From positions 64,001-122,581 of IMG/VR virus record IMGVR_UViG_3300033993_002218: a stretch of 58,581 bases of DNA; one strand, given 5' to 3'. Source of the stretch: a virus. Its lineage: Duplodnaviria; Heunggongvirae; Uroviricota; Caudoviricetes. Of the stretch, positions 1 to 58,581 are shown in pieces; position 1 is the stretch's first letter, and every line of letters starts with the position of its first letter. The notes below the pieces were generated by a model. It saw nothing but the letters and a program-made list of their open reading frames with translations. It did no database searches and had not been told where the DNA came from. The position numbers and the translations under genes are program-made.

Positions 1-2141
1 GTTGCACTAATTGTTACCGTACCAGTATTCTGATCTACCGAAATACCAGATCCTGCGGCAATATAAGTTACTCCTACTCCAGTAATTGTTTCACCATTGA
101 TAGAGATTGATGTTGCACTGATAATTCCAGTATTTCCATCAATAGTTATTCCAGATCCAACTACAATAGTATTAGTAGAACCATCAAGAGTGATTGATGA
201 TGTTCCTATCGTCAATATTCCAGTAATTCTTGCATCTCCATTTACAATCAGAGAAGTTGTTGCTCCACCGACAGTAACATTATTAAAAGTAGAAACACCA
301 ACACTCATACCTTCTGATGAGGTATTTCCATATCCAAGTGTTTGATCTAATGTTTGTGATCCTCCTCCACCCGAAACAGTAACAGTTACAACACCAGAAG
401 AAACTGGAGATACTATTAAATTATTACCAAAATTAATTGTTGTAGCAGTTCCAACTAAAACTTCATCATCCCGTATACCAATACCAATACCAGAACCCGA
501 GGCAACAATACCAGTTAATTGAGAACCATCACCCCTGAAGGAATTGGCAGTAATAATACCAGTGCTGTTTATATTAGCAACTGTTGCATTTTGAGTGGTT
601 AAAGTTTGAGTAGTTAGAGTTTGTGATTGAATTAATCCAGAAGCTCTTATATCAGTTTTTGTAATTGCTACACCATCACCAAAAATAGGATCTCCACCTA
701 CAAAAAATTCATAAGAATTACTTAAAATTGTATCTGTGGCAATTCCTAATCTTGCTATAGTTGTAATTCCCAGATTACCTGTAATTGATCCATTAAATGT
801 AATATTTCCATTTACATTTAAATTATTTGAAACAGTTAAGTTACTTGCAATTGTTGTTACACCAGTAAAATAAGAAGAACCTACAACATAAAGTTTTGTT
901 GGTGGATTGGTTATACCTAAACCAAGTTTTCCATCATAAGTAAGAGACATCAATGGATTTGATGGATTCTGACCATAAATCCAATGGAAAGCGCCAGTTC
1001 CTAATCCAGCAGAACCATAGTCAAGGTAATAGTTGACATTTCCAGTATTTGAGTTTATAATATCTAAAGAAGTTGGAGTACTATACAAATAAAATGTATT
1101 TGTGTTTCCAGTTCTTATCTCTGCACTTCTTCCAATTCCAATCGTAGAAACATTATTATCACTTATTACACTGATAGATGAAATTCCTGACTTGCGAACT
1201 TCTATATCTGCTTGAGGTGCTGTATTAGTTCCTACTCCAATTTTTGCAGGAAATCCGACAACATAAAGAGTATCAGTTACTGTAGCAACACCAGTTGAAC
1301 TGAATTGACTATTTACAGAATTAACAGAAATACTTCCACCAGAAGAAAGACTATTAGCAGTTGATGCAGTTCCTGTTAAGTTACCAACAAAACCAGATGC
1401 AGTTACAATGCCAGATACTATAATGTTTGATGGTAGTCTGGATGTACTTAATGTTCCTGAAGTAATATTAGATGCATTCAAGGAAGTAAGAGAAGCACCA
1501 GATCCAACAAATGATGATGCGGTAATAATTCCCGATAGAGTAATATTGGATGGAAATCTGGATGTACTTATTGTACCAGAAGTAATGTTGGATGCATTTA
1601 ATGATGTTAGATTACTTCCATTTCCAGAAAAAGATACTGCAGTTACGATTCCATTTGAATATACATCACCAGTAGAATTAATTCCAATACCAGTAGAATA
1701 AACAAGTGGATTTGCTCCAACTTGAAAGGTAAATGATGGACTTGTAGTAGCTATTCCAACATTTCCTACTGCATAAATGCTACTGACACCTATTCCAGTA
1801 TTTACATCAACCCATTGAGATGTTGGAAGATTAGAAAGTTTTGATCCATCCCCATAGTAAGTAACAACTCCAGAACTTGCAGTTACAATTCCAGAAGTAA
1901 TTGAAGTGACACCAACATTTAGGGTTGTAAATGAAGAAATTCCTGATAGATTAAGATTTCCAGTGTTTATTTCTGAGACACTTAAAATTCCAACTATTCT
2001 AACATCCCCAAAAACATTCAAAATATAATCTTTCAGTATAGTTGTTCCAATTCCAACCAAACCATTTTGATTAACTATGAAATTATCAGTATCTACCTGA
2101 ACACCATTTCTAAAATTAAATGATTTGTTATAATTTGCCAT
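1..2141 (-). CDS. Tail fibre / virion structural protein (runs off the window edge, 3' end missing)
   Basis: Not in the ORF track because it has no stop in the window. Manual translation from ATG at 2141: MANYNKSFNFRNGVQVDTDNFIVNQNGLVGIGTT..., G/S/T/I-rich with recurring GIGT motifs. Late-promoter-like ATAAATA lies just upstream (~2158-2164). Confidence 0.8.
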   Translation of the reverse strand, partial: MANYNKSFNFRNGVQVDTDNFIVNQNGLVGIGTTILKDYILNVFGDVRIVGILSVSEINTGNLNLSGISSFTTLNVGVTSITSGIVTASSGVVTYYGDGSKLSNLPTSQWVDVNTGIGVSSIYAVGNVGIATTSPSFTFQVGANPLVYSTGIGINSTGDVYSNGIVTAVSFSGNGSNLTSLNASNITSGTISTSRFPSNITLSGIITASSFVGSGASLTSLNASNITSGTLSTSRLPSNIIVSGIVTASGFVGNLTGTASTANSLSSGGSISVNSVNSQFSSTGVATVTDTLYVVGFPAKIGVGTNTAPQADIEVRKSGISSISVISDNNVSTIGIGRSAEIRTGNTNTFYLYSTPTSLDIINSNTGNVNYYLDYGSAGLGTGAFHWIYGQNPSNPLMSLTYDGKLGLGITNPPTKLYVVGSSYFTGVTTIASNLTVSNNLNVNGNITFNGSITGNLGITTIARLGIATDTILSNSYEFFVGGDPIFGDGVAITKTDIRASGLIQSQTLTTQTLTTQNATVANINSTGIITANSFRGDGSQLTGIVASGSGIGIGIRDDEVLVGTATTINFGNNLIVSPVSSGVVTVTVSGGGGSQTLDQTLGYGNTSSEGMSVGVSTFNNVTVGGATTSLIVNGDARITGILTIGTSSITLDGSTNTIVVGSGITIDGNTGIISATSISINGETITGVGVTYIAAGSGISVDQNTGTVTISA

Positions 2142-2161
2142 CTTGGAGACTTTTTAAGTAT

Positions 2162-2725
2162 TTATGAAACTCTCATAATGAATGCCAGTGCATAGTATGG
2201 AGGAAGGTTTTTGTTTGTTCCAGATTCACCATACGGATTAATTGTAACTGTGTGAGTATGATCTCCAGCAGCATTTATAATAGGACCATTAGATGGATTA
2301 TCTCCAGCCCAAGTAGTAGTAACATTAGTTGAACCCCCATCCCCATCACCATTTCTAAATGTTAAATCACTTACATAAGCTGTTCCAGTATCCTCTACCC
2401 GCTTTGTTTGATGATTAATAGAGTGAATGTGACCACCCGGATCACTTGTTGTTCCAGTGTGAGAGTGAGAAACTACAACAGCATCAGCACTACCACCACT
2501 ATCATCTGTTTGATAAGCACCACCAGAACATACAATAAATTTATCTACTAAGTTTGGAGTAAATTGCCCAGCAAGTGAACCTGATGTAATTAATGAATTA
2601 TTACACAATTGCCATCCTGTTGGAATCTCAGTTCCAGACCACATAATAATTCCACCAACTGGAATAGTTCCTGATGCTTTATTTCCTAATGTATCTCCCA
2701 ATAAACTTGCTTTTGTAACTGACAT
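2162..2725 (-). CDS. Tail-collar domain short fibre protein
   Basis: IPVGGIIMWSGTEIPTGWQLCN start and NLPPYYALAFIMR end are tail-collar/short-fibre signatures. Confidence 0.8.
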   Translation of the reverse strand: MSVTKASLLGDTLGNKASGTIPVGGIIMWSGTEIPTGWQLCNNSLITSGSLAGQFTPNLVDKFIVCSGGAYQTDDSGGSADAVVVSHSHTGTTSDPGGHIHSINHQTKRVEDTGTAYVSDLTFRNGDGDGGSTNVTTTWAGDNPSNGPIINAAGDHTHTVTINPYGESGTNKNLPPYYALAFIMRVS

Positions 2726-2744
2726 AATCGTTTATCTCCTTATA

Positions 2745-5700
2745 TTAGTATTTAATCACTGGAAGCATTCCAACATATGGTGGAAGGTTTGCGTTGGTTA
2801 TGTTACCTGGAGTTCCTGCGTAATTTACTGTTGTTGAAACAGTAATCCCGGTAGTATTAGGATTCATTGTAATTTGGTTTCCGCCAAGACCTCCACCGCC
2901 GGAACCACTACCATATCCACCAGTATTTCTAGCAATATCACTATTAACTGATGTGTGATCGTGTCCAGGATCGCCAACAGAGGAAGTTGCAGTATGATTA
3001 TGATAAGGAATTATTGCATCAGCAGTACCACTAGCATCTCCAGGAATTGCGGAGTATCCTACAAAATTATTAATTAGATTTGGAAGAGTTCCAGTGGCAC
3101 CATAAGTAGTTCCTAAGAAAGATCTTAGACTTTGTAATATTGAAGCATTTACTCCTTGGAAAGTTCCACTAGTTGGAATTACTCCACCATTACAAATCAA
3201 ATAACCCTCTGGCGCATCATATTGTGTTGCTCCAATAATTGCAGAACCACCTGTTGTAGTGTCTAAAGAAGATGCTGCCATATAAAATACTGAACCAACA
3301 GGAATTCCCGGTGCCCATTTAACTCCAGAAGATTGTGTGTTATCTGCAGTTAAAACATGTCCATTTGAACCAACTTGTAGTCTTGCAGCAGCATTATTTC
3401 CAGTTGCAACAAGAATTTCTCCTTTATTCTCCCAGTCAATATTTGAAATAAGAGAACCTTGACCACCCAGAGCAATAATAAAACATGAAACACCAGATGC
3501 AGGAGCAGTTGTGAATCTTATGGTACTAGTATTCTGACCACCAGATTGAACAACTATAAAGTCTGCACCAGGTCTTTGAATGACACCTCCAATGGATACA
3601 ATTAGATTTGCTGAACTTCCCGCAGGAATAAATGCAGTTCCATTAATTCTAAGAGTAAAGTCAGTCGTTGATCCATTAAAGGATCCGGAAATATCATCAC
3701 AAATTAATGAATTTCCAAGTGGAAAATCTCCAGAGATTGATGCACTATCTGCAGGAGTATATCCAAGAGCATTGGTAACTTCACGGAAACTAATGAAATC
3801 TTGGTTTCCATCAGCACGAAGCATCTTATAAGTGAGAATTCCATTTAAAACCGAAGATTGTGGAGTTGTTGCCTTAAACTTTGGTGATGTAACTCCTTCA
3901 GCACCTGTAACTGTAAGAATATCTCCAATTGTAGCGGAATTAACAATTCCTAAGGATGCTGCATTTAACTTTTTAGCAACTCCAATTCCACCAAGAACAC
4001 GAAGAGCACCAATTGAAGTTGATGTAGATTCTGTGATGTTTGAAATTTGAACACTTCCAGTAAATGTGGAATTTCCTCCAACATTCAGATTTTCACCAAC
4101 TCCAACTCCACCTTTAACAGTTAGAGCACCCTTTCCAATTGAATCTGATGATGTTGTATTAGTAACTCTAATTTGACCACTGAAGTTTGCAGTATTTTTA
4201 AATCTAGTTTGTTGGTTAAACGTAACTGGACCGTCAAACTGAGAAAGAACCGTTCCAGAATCACCACCCTCTACAAGAAGTCTTTCTTTTACTGTAACTT
4301 CATCATAAACAACACTTGATTTTGAAGCATCCTCTCCGGTAATTGTTGGAGTTGGAATATCATAAGAAGTGATCTCTCCAGAAGATGAAGATGTTTTAGT
4401 GTTTCCACTAAAGAAATCTCCATTATTATTCATACCAGTATAAACAACTACACCACCAGATCTTTCTTGAGACTGAACTAAGAAATCTTCTCTTTCTGAA
4501 AGTGATTTAACCTGAACTTGAGGTAATCCAGTTGAATAGTTCCCTGGTCCATATCCAAGATATTCAAATGTATGACCCGAAGCACGAAGAATTGATGGTC
4601 TGCGGAATTCAATTGGAACTGGTTTGACTTTACGAATTAAAGAATCAGTAGCATGAGATTCTTGACGAGTTCCAAAAGCACCACGAATAACATTAAATTG
4701 AGAATCATTACCTGAAGAAGTAATTCTCATAATTTCATTATCAATCTGAATATAAGATCCTAATGAAAATCTTTTCGCAATGGCAATTCCTGAATTAATA
4801 GTTTCTACATTTATGGTAGATTCAGTTGTAATTGCATTTGAAAGTTTAACAACTTCATTATCATAAAGTATAGTATGGCGAGATCCAATATTTTCTTGCC
4901 CAATATCAGAAATTGCATCATTGGCAGAAAATCCATGCTTCAGAATATGACCATTTGTAACACTTAAGGATTGTGAAGTAATGGCAGTAAATGAAGTTAC
5001 ATTTATTTTTTCTTCAACAACATAATCCCCAACGTTATTGTTACTTGAGTCAATGACTCTGAATTTATTACCTTTCAATAATCCATGAGGAGTTTGAGTT
5101 ACGAAAGTAGTAATTTGTGAAGTAGAATTATAAGAACTTGAAGTAATTTTAAAGGATGGTCCAGTAATAAACACATACTGACCAGAGATTGGTGTTGGAT
5201 CACTTCCTGTTTTTGCAATTGAAATTTGAGTATCAGATACAATATTACTAATTCTATAATACCCATCCGTTACTGTTCCAATACCAGTAATTTGAACTAC
5301 ATCCCCAATACTTGTAGAAATACCAGCAGTTGTAACTGTATATCCTCTACCATTACCAGCAACTCTGGACGAATCTAGATAAAGAACTTCACCATTTGCA
5401 TAACCAGATCCAGATGAAAGAATTGTAACTGAATCTACAGAACCACCAGATACAACTACCTTTGTAGTTGCACCCTTCCATGTTCCAACTGATGGATTTG
5501 GATCTCCATTTAGAAGTTTTACATCATAATGAGTTCCTGAAATGTAAGCAGCATCACCAACAGTATCAAAAGTTCCTTCTATAATTCCACCTAATCCATG
5601 TCTCCTTCCAAATGATAATGTTGCACTTGTGGAAGATGATGTGACTGATGTTATTGGTTTTCCGATTCCTAGAGAAGTTACTAACTTATCAATTGTTTCT

Positions 5701-57169: not shown

Positions 57170-57325
57170 TTATTGGTGCTTTTGTAAATATGCAACCAAA
57201 TCTTTAAGGTAGTCAGATGCCTTATCCCAATCCCCATTAAACCTATCATTAAGTTCTTGATAAATTTTTTCTGCATTTTCAGGTGCTAGATTGGTTGCCT
57301 CAATAAATCCTTCTTTAGTAATCAT
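57170..57325 (-). CDS. Small hypothetical protein, 51 aa
   Basis: Manual translation: MITKEGFIEATNLAPENAEKIYQELNDRFNGDWDKASDYLKDLVAYLQKHQ. Confidence 0.5.
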   Translation of the reverse strand: MITKEGFIEATNLAPENAEKIYQELNDRFNGDWDKASDYLKDLVAYLQKHQ

Positions 57326-57944
57326 AATGTTTTAATGTTTTTTCTGTAAGGTTAATAATTTCTACTATGGGCAATTCTATCACATAACACTCCGTATATC
57401 CACTATCCGTGGTCTCAAAATCAATTTTATAATTTTGATATTTTTGGTGGATGAATTTTTCAAGATGATGGACTTGATAGTGAATTCCTTTCCATATCTT
57501 AATAACACTATGCAATTTATTTTTGGTGTGGTTTGCTAATTTATTGAAACTTCTACCAACCTTATAAACCAATTTACCTTCAAGATAGACAATAACCAAA
57601 TACAAATAATCAGTATCAAAATATCTTTCTTTCCAAGGATTTTGGTAGTTATTTCCTTGTAGTTTTTCGCCATATTTTTTGACTCTTTCATCAGTTTCTT
57701 TGGTTAATCCTTTATTCCAAACTTTTTGACCTGTTTTCTTTCCTTTATTCCAAGGTTCTTTACCAACCTGCCATTCAGAAAAGTTTCTTGTTACACCAAT
57801 TGTTTTAAGATACTTATATACGGAAACTCTTGGTATGTTTAGTTGTCTTCCAATTTCGTGGGAGGATAAACCAGACAAATACATTTGTTTCCAAATCTCC
57901 CTATCCTTATCAGTATATTTTATATTCATTTGTGGTCTGCTCAC
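57315..57944 (-). CDS. Putative free-standing homing endonuclease (HTH + NUMOD-like repeats + GIY-YIG/T5orf172-like domain)
   Basis: HTH GLSSHEIGRQLNIPRVSVYKYL; PWNKGKK and VWNKGLTK repeats; YLYLV...YKVGRS...LEKFIH...GYTECY; GTG start. Confidence 0.65.
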   Translation of the reverse strand: MSRPQMNIKYTDKDREIWKQMYLSGLSSHEIGRQLNIPRVSVYKYLKTIGVTRNFSEWQVGKEPWNKGKKTGQKVWNKGLTKETDERVKKYGEKLQGNNYQNPWKERYFDTDYLYLVIVYLEGKLVYKVGRSFNKLANHTKNKLHSVIKIWKGIHYQVHHLEKFIHQKYQNYKIDFETTDSGYTECYVIELPIVEIINLTEKTLKHYDY

Positions 57945-57953
57945 GGATATTAT

Positions 57954-57961
57954 TATTTATA
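57954..57961 (-). promoter_or_regulatory. T4-type late promoter TATAAATA
   Basis: Exact consensus overlapping the U-tract of the psbA terminator. Confidence 0.7.
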
Positions 57962-57986
57962 AAAAAGAGACCTTTACAGGTCTCTT
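57961..57986 (-). terminator. Intrinsic terminator after psbA
   Basis: AAGAGACCT-GTAA-AGGTCTCTT followed by a T-tract. Confidence 0.85.
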
Positions 57987-58012
57987 CATTATATCACAAT
58001 TTAGTGATTATA

Positions 58013-58581
58013 TCAACCGATAGAAGGAGCAGTTAGAGCAACCGAAGTTGTTTCTGCTGCAGCCAAATCTAAAGGAAAATTATGTGCATTTCTCTCGTGC
58101 ATAACTTCCATACCCAACCCAGATTTGTTCAATATGTCCGCCCAAGTAGGAATTACCCGGTTTTGACTATCCAGAATACTCTGATTGAAATTTAGTCCGT
58201 TGAGGTTGAATGCCATAGTGCTTACGCCTAGAGCAGTAAACCAGATGCCCACAACGGGCCAAGCGGCGAGGAAGAAGTGAAGTGAACGAGAATTATTGAA
58301 CGAAGCATATTGGAAAATGAGTCGTCCAAAGTAACCGTGAGCCAATTGTCCAAAAGTTTCCTTAAGGGTTGGACTATATCTTCACCTATTAAAGGTGCTG
58401 GGCGCTCTTGCCTGTTATTAAGGGAACTGTATCCCTCAGGTAGTCTCTGAACCTTTCCTAGATGTATCTAGGACTTGGATGCTGATTGCCATATCCATAA
58501 AGGACTTAGGTTTCCAGCAGTTCACCCAGTTTAACGTGACCCGCTCTGTCAAGCCACGATGTTATAAGTCTCTTCTTCTTG
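58013..58581 (-). CDS. psbA: Photosystem II D1 protein, 3' part, split by an intron (exons >58581-58552 and 58342-58013)
   Basis: [10 protein letters not shown] | [29 protein letters not shown]...[23 protein letters not shown]. The tracked ORF's TTG 'Met' is actually the intron 3' end. Confidence 0.97.
58343..58551 (-). ncRNA. Group I self-splicing intron (209 nt) in psbA between Ala250 and Ala251
   Basis: 5' exon ends in U and the intron ends in G. P1 CGUGGCU/GGUCACG with U-G at the splice site; P10 GAGC/GCUC; P AACTGCTGGAAA; Q AATCAGC; R GTTCAGAGACTA; S AAGATATAGTCC. Removal restores the D1 frame. Confidence 0.95.

Follow-up and report, generated by a model that had tools for sequence, protein, structure and literature searches.

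A group I intron at psbA nucleotide 750 in a cyanophage contig, and a downstream putative homing endonuclease gene related to proteins encoded within plastid introns at the same site

The DNA analysed here (the window) is the last 58.6 kb, bases 64001-122581, of a linear 122,581-base IMG/VR virus record. Its psbA gene is interrupted after nucleotide 750 by a 209-nt group I intron that has no ORF and is followed by a putative free-standing homing endonuclease gene, ORF209. The intron is already known in kind: it belongs to a cyanophage psbA intron family, it occupies a site published for chloroplasts, and it lies unrecognised in the GenBank genome of phage S-SRM01. What appears to be new is the homology of the phage free-standing gene with the protein encoded inside plastid introns at site 750, and this homology points to a second pair engaged in collaborative homing and to a path by which endonucleases may pass between the free-standing and the intron-borne state.

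The psbA gene of the window is encoded on the minus strand and is truncated by the end of the contig. What remains of exon 1 (58552..58581, minus strand, cut by the contig end) encodes D1 residues Gln241-Ala250 and ends in GCT; read on the minus strand from 58581 it is CAA GAA GAA GAG ACT TAT AAC ATC GTG GCT, followed immediately by TGA. The frame resumes at GCT CAC GGT TAC, from Ala251 on, in exon 2 (58013..58342, minus strand), which encodes D1 Ala251-Gly360 (AHGYFGRL ... SIG; Pfam Photo_RC, E 1.8e-8) and closes with the stop codon at 58015..58013. The insert between them (58343..58551, minus strand) starts with the in-frame TGA and ends ...CAATTG, its terminal G being position 58343, and psbA is split exactly at Ala250|Ala251, nt 750|751 (GCT|...G|GCT). 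The first-pass annotation had claimed that unspliced RNA meets a TGA directly after Ala250, and this can be read in the sequence; since the insert begins with this in-frame stop codon, only RNA that has been spliced can yield the whole of D1, with His252 and the remainder of the QB pocket. Exon 2 has no intron at the site used in phage S-PM2, where it reads GAG AGA|AAT GCA (alignment; tblastn against S-PM2 D1). As only 30 nt separate the intron from the contig end, the integrity of psbA here rests on near-identical contigs. Four of these (L014, L019, L025 and L026) carry the 209-nt intron of the window letter for letter and a fifth (L024) has a near-identical copy; all five have a full 360-codon psbA gene in which the 750 intron is the sole intron, and the joined exons give intact D1 in every carrier examined.

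Rfam RF00028 aligns over its full length (model positions 1-253) with 58576..58350 (minus strand), at 88.5 bits against a gathering score of 50 and with E 1.2e-22. A structure model was derived from the sequence and the Rfam alignment and was checked on 12 distinct site-750 copies over 64 pairs. In this model the last 7 nt of exon 1, CGUGGCU, form the 5' strand of P1 and pair with the guide GGUCACG (58541..58535), with a U.G pair at the 5' splice site; P10 consists of 4 bp between GAGC (58546..58543) and GCUC of exon 2, and P7 pairs GACUA (58445..58441) with UAGUC (58376..58372). The window intron has no P2; P3, P4, P5, P6, P7, P8 and P9 are present, one composite hairpin of the P7.1/7.2 type lies between P7 and P3', and a GAAA loop caps P9 at 58360..58357. 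P5 carries the motif CCUAAG/UAUGG (58510..58505 and 58493..58489), which we take to be the 11-nt GAAA-tetraloop receptor, and the intron is presumably of an IA-like subgroup.

Over the 12 copies 95.8% of cells form standard pairs, falling to 30-45% once the partners are slid by 1-3 columns, and P1 is paired in 100% of cells. Changes on both sides of a pair are found at 14 of the 64 pairs, against 5.0 +/- 1.6 in column shuffles; they are located in P3, P5, P6, the P7.1-type hairpin, P8, P9 and P10, and P7 is invariant. P1 covaries with the exon, at the synonymous base of the Val249 codon: phage GUG GCU is accompanied by GGUCACG or GGCCACG guides, and plastid-type GUA GCU (exon CGUAGCU) by GGUUACG or GGCUACG guides. 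The single-sequence minimum free energy is -70 kcal/mol (z = -3.2). The Rfam score and the 12-copy covariation bear out the earlier proposal of a 209-nt group I intron with P1, P7 and P10 pairings at 58343-58551. We conclude that the insert at site 750 is very probably a group I intron and a member of the S-PM2-type family of phage psbA introns, and we infer that it splices in vivo. Splicing would proceed by pairing of the guide with the exon end in P1, with the U.G wobble at the cut; P10 would form between GAGC and the first bases of exon 2, and the P3-P8 core with its P7 pseudoknot, together with the terminal G, would complete the ribozyme.

By megablast the intron plus exon 2 match Synechococcus phage S-SRM01, a freshwater Synechococcus phage from Singapore, at 93.9%, and the intron alone at 98.1%; outside psbA the window matches this phage only in patches of ~77% identity. 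The S-SRM01 psbA gene (1371-3776) has four exons and three introns, at nt 276 (910 nt), 750 (209 nt) and 1002 (207 nt). The GenBank record (MW015081) gives two partial D1 CDSs and no annotation for the 750 intron or for the last two exons, and the S-SRM01 paper reports psbA as 'partial' ORFs and describes only the ORF-bearing intron (PMC8557907). The nt 276 intron of S-SRM01 has an HNH-type ORF in its P5 loop; site 276 with an HNH ORF in L5 is also a classic chlorophycean psbA intron (PMC2442088, PMC2997540). We note that the last ~90 nt of the window psbA gene (58013-58100, minus strand) have many synonymous differences from S-SRM01, for example AGA for CGT at Arg334 and the stretch CAT AAT TTT CCT TTA, and that the preceding ~400 nt are ~94% identical to it; this could be a recombination boundary at the 3' end of the window psbA gene, near the target region of the S-PM2 endonuclease F-CphI.

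IMG/VR was scanned with an exon-anchored pattern, Glu-Thr-Tyr-Asn-Ile-Val-Ala followed by any base but G. Among the 45 loci found, 23 have a 208-209 nt intron and two a diverged variant of 248-251 nt at the same junction; the other 20 lie outside psbA and match by chance. The exon end required by the guide, (ATC or ATT) GTG GCT, is present in every carrier. The window element is an ordinary selfish RNA, recurrent and common in freshwater viral metagenomes. A scan of genome contigs with the exon-anchored pattern is uninformative on host psbA introns, none of the 80 matches listed (out of at least 120) being titled as a cyanobacterium. At the loci examined, psbA introns map to positions 179, 276, 317, 408, 548, 556, 645, 750, 890, 989, 1002, ~1003/1004 and 1011, 13 positions that represent 12 clear sites. 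Other carriers of the 750 intron hold up to six psbA introns (six in L049, at least five in L022; also L016, L035 and L066), and the sites 179, 276, 408, 548 and 645 of multi-intron phage psbA genes coincide with published green-algal plastid psbA sites.

Site 750 is also occupied in green-algal plastids. An ORF-less group I intron at psbA site 750 was reported, then as new, from Nephroselmis astigmatica (PMC4194372), and Ulva plastomes have a 'psbA-750' intron with an ORF that encodes a T5orf172 domain (PMC10151680); chloroplast catalogues list sites including 179, 276, 408, 548, 645 and 754, with 750 absent and 754 the nearest to it (PMC2442088, PMC2997540). Metagenome contigs were scanned with an exon pattern that allows Val249 codons other than GTG and so leaves out the phage lineage. 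Of the 21 loci obtained, 11 have at the exact 750 junction a group I intron that is complete and 691-1245 nt long (G+C 0.22-0.40), four show the beginning of the same intron cut by the contig end, and the last six are of other kinds. Among the 11, L198 is read as plastid DNA; ccsA, psaC and nine tRNA genes lie on the same contig. The other ten intron contigs are probably plastid DNA as well. In these plastid-type introns the ORF sits in the P5 loop, and the helix order and several sequence stretches match those of the phage intron. Two low-GC metagenome contigs (L201, L208) have a psbA-like sequence that continues from Ala250 with Ile or Thr for Ala251, and with Lys for Arg257; they are sequence variants and not intron carriers. 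In two further metagenome contigs (L205, L210) the psbA frame is broken after ...ATC GTA GCA by an insert starting TAAAATTTGCATGCG or AAAATTGCATGCG, and no exon 2 motif was found within 4 kb downstream of it; the insert is possibly an intron of a different type, located at site 750 or close to it.

The first-pass annotation had asked whether the site is shared with green-algal plastids, and it is, by N. astigmatica, Ulva and the plastid-type contigs, at the same junction. It had also placed the S-PM2 intron elsewhere in the gene, near codon 334, which agrees with our mapping of the S-PM2/S-RSM88 intron to Arg334 (CGT)|Asn335 (AAT), nt 1002. The element is less novel than the first-pass annotation had hoped, the same intron being present in S-SRM01 and, counting the two diverged variants, in 25 IMG/VR contigs; our literature search found no paper describing it in a cyanophage.

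The core of the window intron is 85.7% identical to the S-PM2 intron over 125 nt, and 158 of the 209 positions of the whole intron match. The sequence places the window intron as one lineage within the S-PM2-type family of phage psbA introns, here at the plastid psbA-750 site. Its guide-P3-P4 segment is 73-75% identical to other site-750 introns, phage and plastid alike, and 40-71% identical to introns at other sites, and phage introns at sites 548, 556 and 1002 are the nearest to its P4-P7.1 core (84-89%); this signal is weak because the segments compared are short (45-62 nt), and it is consistent with, rather than proof of, a mosaic origin in which a site-750 guide was combined with a core from phage introns at other sites.

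ORF209 (57315..57929, minus strand) begins ~70 nt past the psbA stop codon and encodes a putative free-standing homing endonuclease of 204 aa if the conserved ATG at 57929 is taken as the start; in the ORF list it begins at GTG 57944 and has 209 codons. Its N-terminal part is a helix-turn-helix region (PDB sequence match, E 4e-4; GcrA/Tc3-like fold, Z 6.9). The middle contains two WNKG repeats that are NUMOD3-like, and distant relatives with that stretch carry Pfam NUMOD3. The C-terminal domain matches phrog_681, 'endonuclease', with E 9e-13. The Pfam T5orf172 match of ORF209 itself is weak (14.8 bits against a cut-off of 20, E 0.043), and eight of 17 family members match at E <=0.1; plastid-type homologues score above the cut-offs (T5orf172, 25.1-25.7 bits; MUG113, 28.2 bits). 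The T5orf172 proteins form a subfamily of GIY-YIG enzymes; in ICP1 phages they serve as homing endonucleases, and one such gene lies there beside an intron (PMC10448857). The modelled C-terminal domain (pLDDT 84.4) has a beta-beta-alpha-beta-alpha order, and its top three VIA matches are all GIY-YIG nucleases, although weak ones: At-HIGLE (Z 4.9; rmsd 2.8 over 80 residues) and Slx1 twice (Z 4.7), the GIY-YIG matches of VIA as a whole ranging over Z 4.6-4.9. Foldseek against PDB gave nothing at E <= 0.001 for the whole of ORF209 or for its C-terminal domain.

Against the plastid intron proteins ORF209 gives a BLASTP match of 33% identity (E 5e-29) and an hhalign probability of 99.8% (E 8e-29) over the full length. 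Sequence comparison thus firmly indicates that ORF209 is homologous to the proteins encoded by plastid site-750 introns. The endonuclease tree splits plastid from phage copies (support 95/91); being unrooted, it gives no direction between the intron-borne and the free-standing state. Distant T5orf172-type relatives (29-48% identity) also lie downstream of psbA in three IMG/VR contigs, L333 and L345, in which the 750 site is wild type, and L258, which has Cys249; their N-terminal parts are unlike that of ORF209, and they may be family members with other target specificities. In three further IMG/VR contigs (L229, L230, L234) a T5orf172-type gene lies downstream of a divergent phage D1 gene, ~73% identical to S-PM2 D1, whose product reads Tyr-Ser-Ile-Val-Asn-Ala-His-Ala-Tyr-Phe-Gly-Arg-Leu-Phe-Trp in codons 243-261, with the changes Asn247Ser, Ala250Asn, Gly253Ala and Ile259Phe/Phe260Trp in the QB-binding stretch.

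Between psbA and ORF209 a hairpin, a T run and the motif TATAAATA were recognised by eye (57954..57986, minus strand; hairpin 57986..57965, TATAAATA 57961..57954). This intergenic cassette is probably the terminator of psbA joined to a motif for the next gene that resembles T4-type late promoters; a consensus terminator scan did not list the hairpin after psbA. The same layout of hairpin, T run and TATAAATA precedes the F-CphI gene in S-PM2 (L003, 2735-2790) and in S-SRM01. The window and the F-CphI cassettes diverge right after a shared TGATATAAT at the psbA stop codon, and it looks as if two alternative endonuclease cassettes occupy one slot 3' of psbA. Rfam matches to osmY and BSnc120 at 57952-58038 (plus strand) are far under their gathering scores, fall on the terminator hairpin and are taken as chance.

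Close ORF209 copies are kept just downstream of psbA in 24 IMG/VR contigs. Seventeen of these have the 750 intron, seven are intron-less, and none has a wild-type site. The seven intron-less genes are altered in an otherwise near-invariant stretch adjoining the junction, six by Asn247Ser and one by Val249Cys, and three ENA contigs with a readable psbA gene show the Ser247 state. As a control we sampled 91 wild-type intron-less psbA loci with enough downstream DNA: none has a close ORF209 copy, two have distant relatives (<50% identity) and 11 have F-CphI. The contrast of 0/91 with 7/19 has p = 1.6e-6 in Fisher's exact test, a value that overstates the support since the contigs are mutually related and the counts are not independent. 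Among the contigs sampled, close ORF209 copies never adjoin a wild-type 750 site. Ser247 and Cys249 were also considered as exclusive markers of the endonuclease and rejected, since four of ~10 assessable Ser247 contigs and most Cys249 contigs do not have the gene; those without ORF209 carry F-CphI-like or HNH-like genes, or nothing. A co-conversion tract around nt 750 was likewise discarded as evidence for homing: psbA of L042 is 89% identical to the window type in nt 691-840 and 66-71% elsewhere, and intron-less alleles rise alike (85-86%), so the flank is simply conserved.

We lean, on balance, towards ORF209 being the cognate homing endonuclease of psbA site 750 and the partner of the intron in collaborative homing, which would follow the style of F-CphI at another site and with another nuclease family; the window intron would then be moved between phages in trans by the T5orf172-type gene just 3' of psbA. 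A competing account, which we hold to be possible though rather unlikely, is that ORF209 has nothing to do with the intron and that the slot 3' of psbA receives free-standing homing endonucleases in general, in which case ORF209 would cut elsewhere, in the psbA 3' end or in intergenic DNA, and the intron would be inherited vertically or spread otherwise. It fits with this account that F-CphI occupies the same slot in S-PM2, in S-SRM01 and at 11 of the 91 wild-type loci, that S-SRM01 pairs its 750 intron with F-CphI and not with ORF209, and that four carriers of the intron (L016, L035, L038, L049) have no ORF209 match in the DNA examined. An ORF209 copy of 82% identity lies beside the intron-less psbA gene of L062, Ser247 and Cys249 alleles occur without an ORF209-type gene, and the intron of L042 is 93% identical to that of the window while the two endonucleases are 34% identical. 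This account is, however, hard to reconcile with a homologous protein encoded inside the intron at site 750 in plastid-type contigs, and the absence of an intact wild-type 750 site from all 24 close-copy contigs and the absence of a close copy from all 91 wild-type loci also count against it.

The route by which the intron came to site 750 can be separated from its later spread. Reverse splicing into psbA RNA or recombination that swaps intron cores, in place of endonuclease homing, could have brought it there; the guide segment that groups by site 750, the core that groups with introns at other sites, and the occurrence of the family at 13 mapped positions (12 clear sites) agree with such an origin. 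We nevertheless think this an improbable substitute for homing: the grouping comes from segments of only 45-62 nt, and such a route accounts for first occupancy, not for near-identical copies in divergent psbA backgrounds, and is compatible with later homing. That the insert should be a decayed, non-splicing intron and psbA a pseudogene seems to us scarcely credible. Two U.U mismatches in P9 of the window intron could be read as decay, but all core helices are kept with compensatory changes in the 12 distinct copies, the exons are intact in all copies, and one carrier, S-SRM01, is an isolated and propagated lytic phage (PMC8557907).

If ORF209 is indeed the partner of the site-750 intron, one T5orf172-type family would be seen in three states: inside the site-750 intron of green-algal plastids; free-standing beside a psbA gene with an ORF-less 750 intron, in freshwater cyanophages such as that of the window; and free-standing beside an intron-less psbA gene with an altered site (Asn247Ser or Val249Cys). 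This would be a second collaborative-homing pair in cyanophages, with a site and a nuclease family unlike those of S-PM2 and F-CphI, and a cross-kingdom snapshot of endonuclease genes and introns joining or parting. Two routes to collaborative homing have been left open, one in which a free-standing endonuclease invades an intron and one in which turnover empties the intron of its gene (PMC10448857); at site 750 homologous endonucleases are met with in both positions, intron-borne in plastids and free-standing in phages, and the site so bears on the origin of collaborative homing. For annotation, intron-bearing phage psbA genes have been deposited as 'partial' or fragmented D1, as in S-SRM01, and the exact junction given here would correct this. 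For the biology of infection, the supply of D1 would hinge on splicing within the QB-binding region. The S-PM2 psbA intron splices efficiently during infection with a spliced/unspliced ratio that responds to light (PMC5931967), and this invites the same question here.

The closest known system is that of S-PM2 and S-RSM88, for which collaborative homing of the intron with F-CphI was described (Zeng, Bonocora and Shub 2009, as summarised in PMC6083498 and PMC5931967). Like the window, these phages have an ORF-less intron of ~210 nt in psbA and a free-standing endonuclease gene after the psbA terminator and the TATAAATA motif. The window intron differs in its site (nt 750 as opposed to nt 1002), in its guide and in P9, and the window has neither an F-CphI gene nor an nt 1002 intron; its neighbouring gene has a helix-turn-helix, WNKG repeats and a T5orf172-like domain, whereas F-CphI of S-PM2 is Endo VII-like, and cleavage of the site is proven for F-CphI whereas ORF209 is known here from its sequence. 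S-SRM01 shares the 209-nt intron and its junction with the window, at the identity given above, but its psbA gene contains extra introns at nt 276 and 1002 and is followed by F-CphI. The plastid psbA-750 introns share the identical insertion site; those of the plastid-type metagenome contigs also show the 73-75% identity in the guide-P3-P4 segment and encode a T5orf172 protein that is homologous to ORF209 over its whole length. Their ORF lies inside the intron, whereas the phage intron is ORF-less and the gene lies ~400 bp away, outside psbA. The ORF-less state of the phage intron matches the Nephroselmis type, the comparison with Nephroselmis and Ulva being by published description and that of sequences by the metagenome contigs. 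Finally, T7-like and T3 phages (Bonocora and Shub 2009) and the ICP1 T5orf172 gene beside a terminase intron, both as far as PMC10448857 relates them, are cases in which an endonuclease family is seen both intron-borne and free-standing beside the interrupted gene; at psbA site 750 the two states are instead split between plastids and cyanophages.
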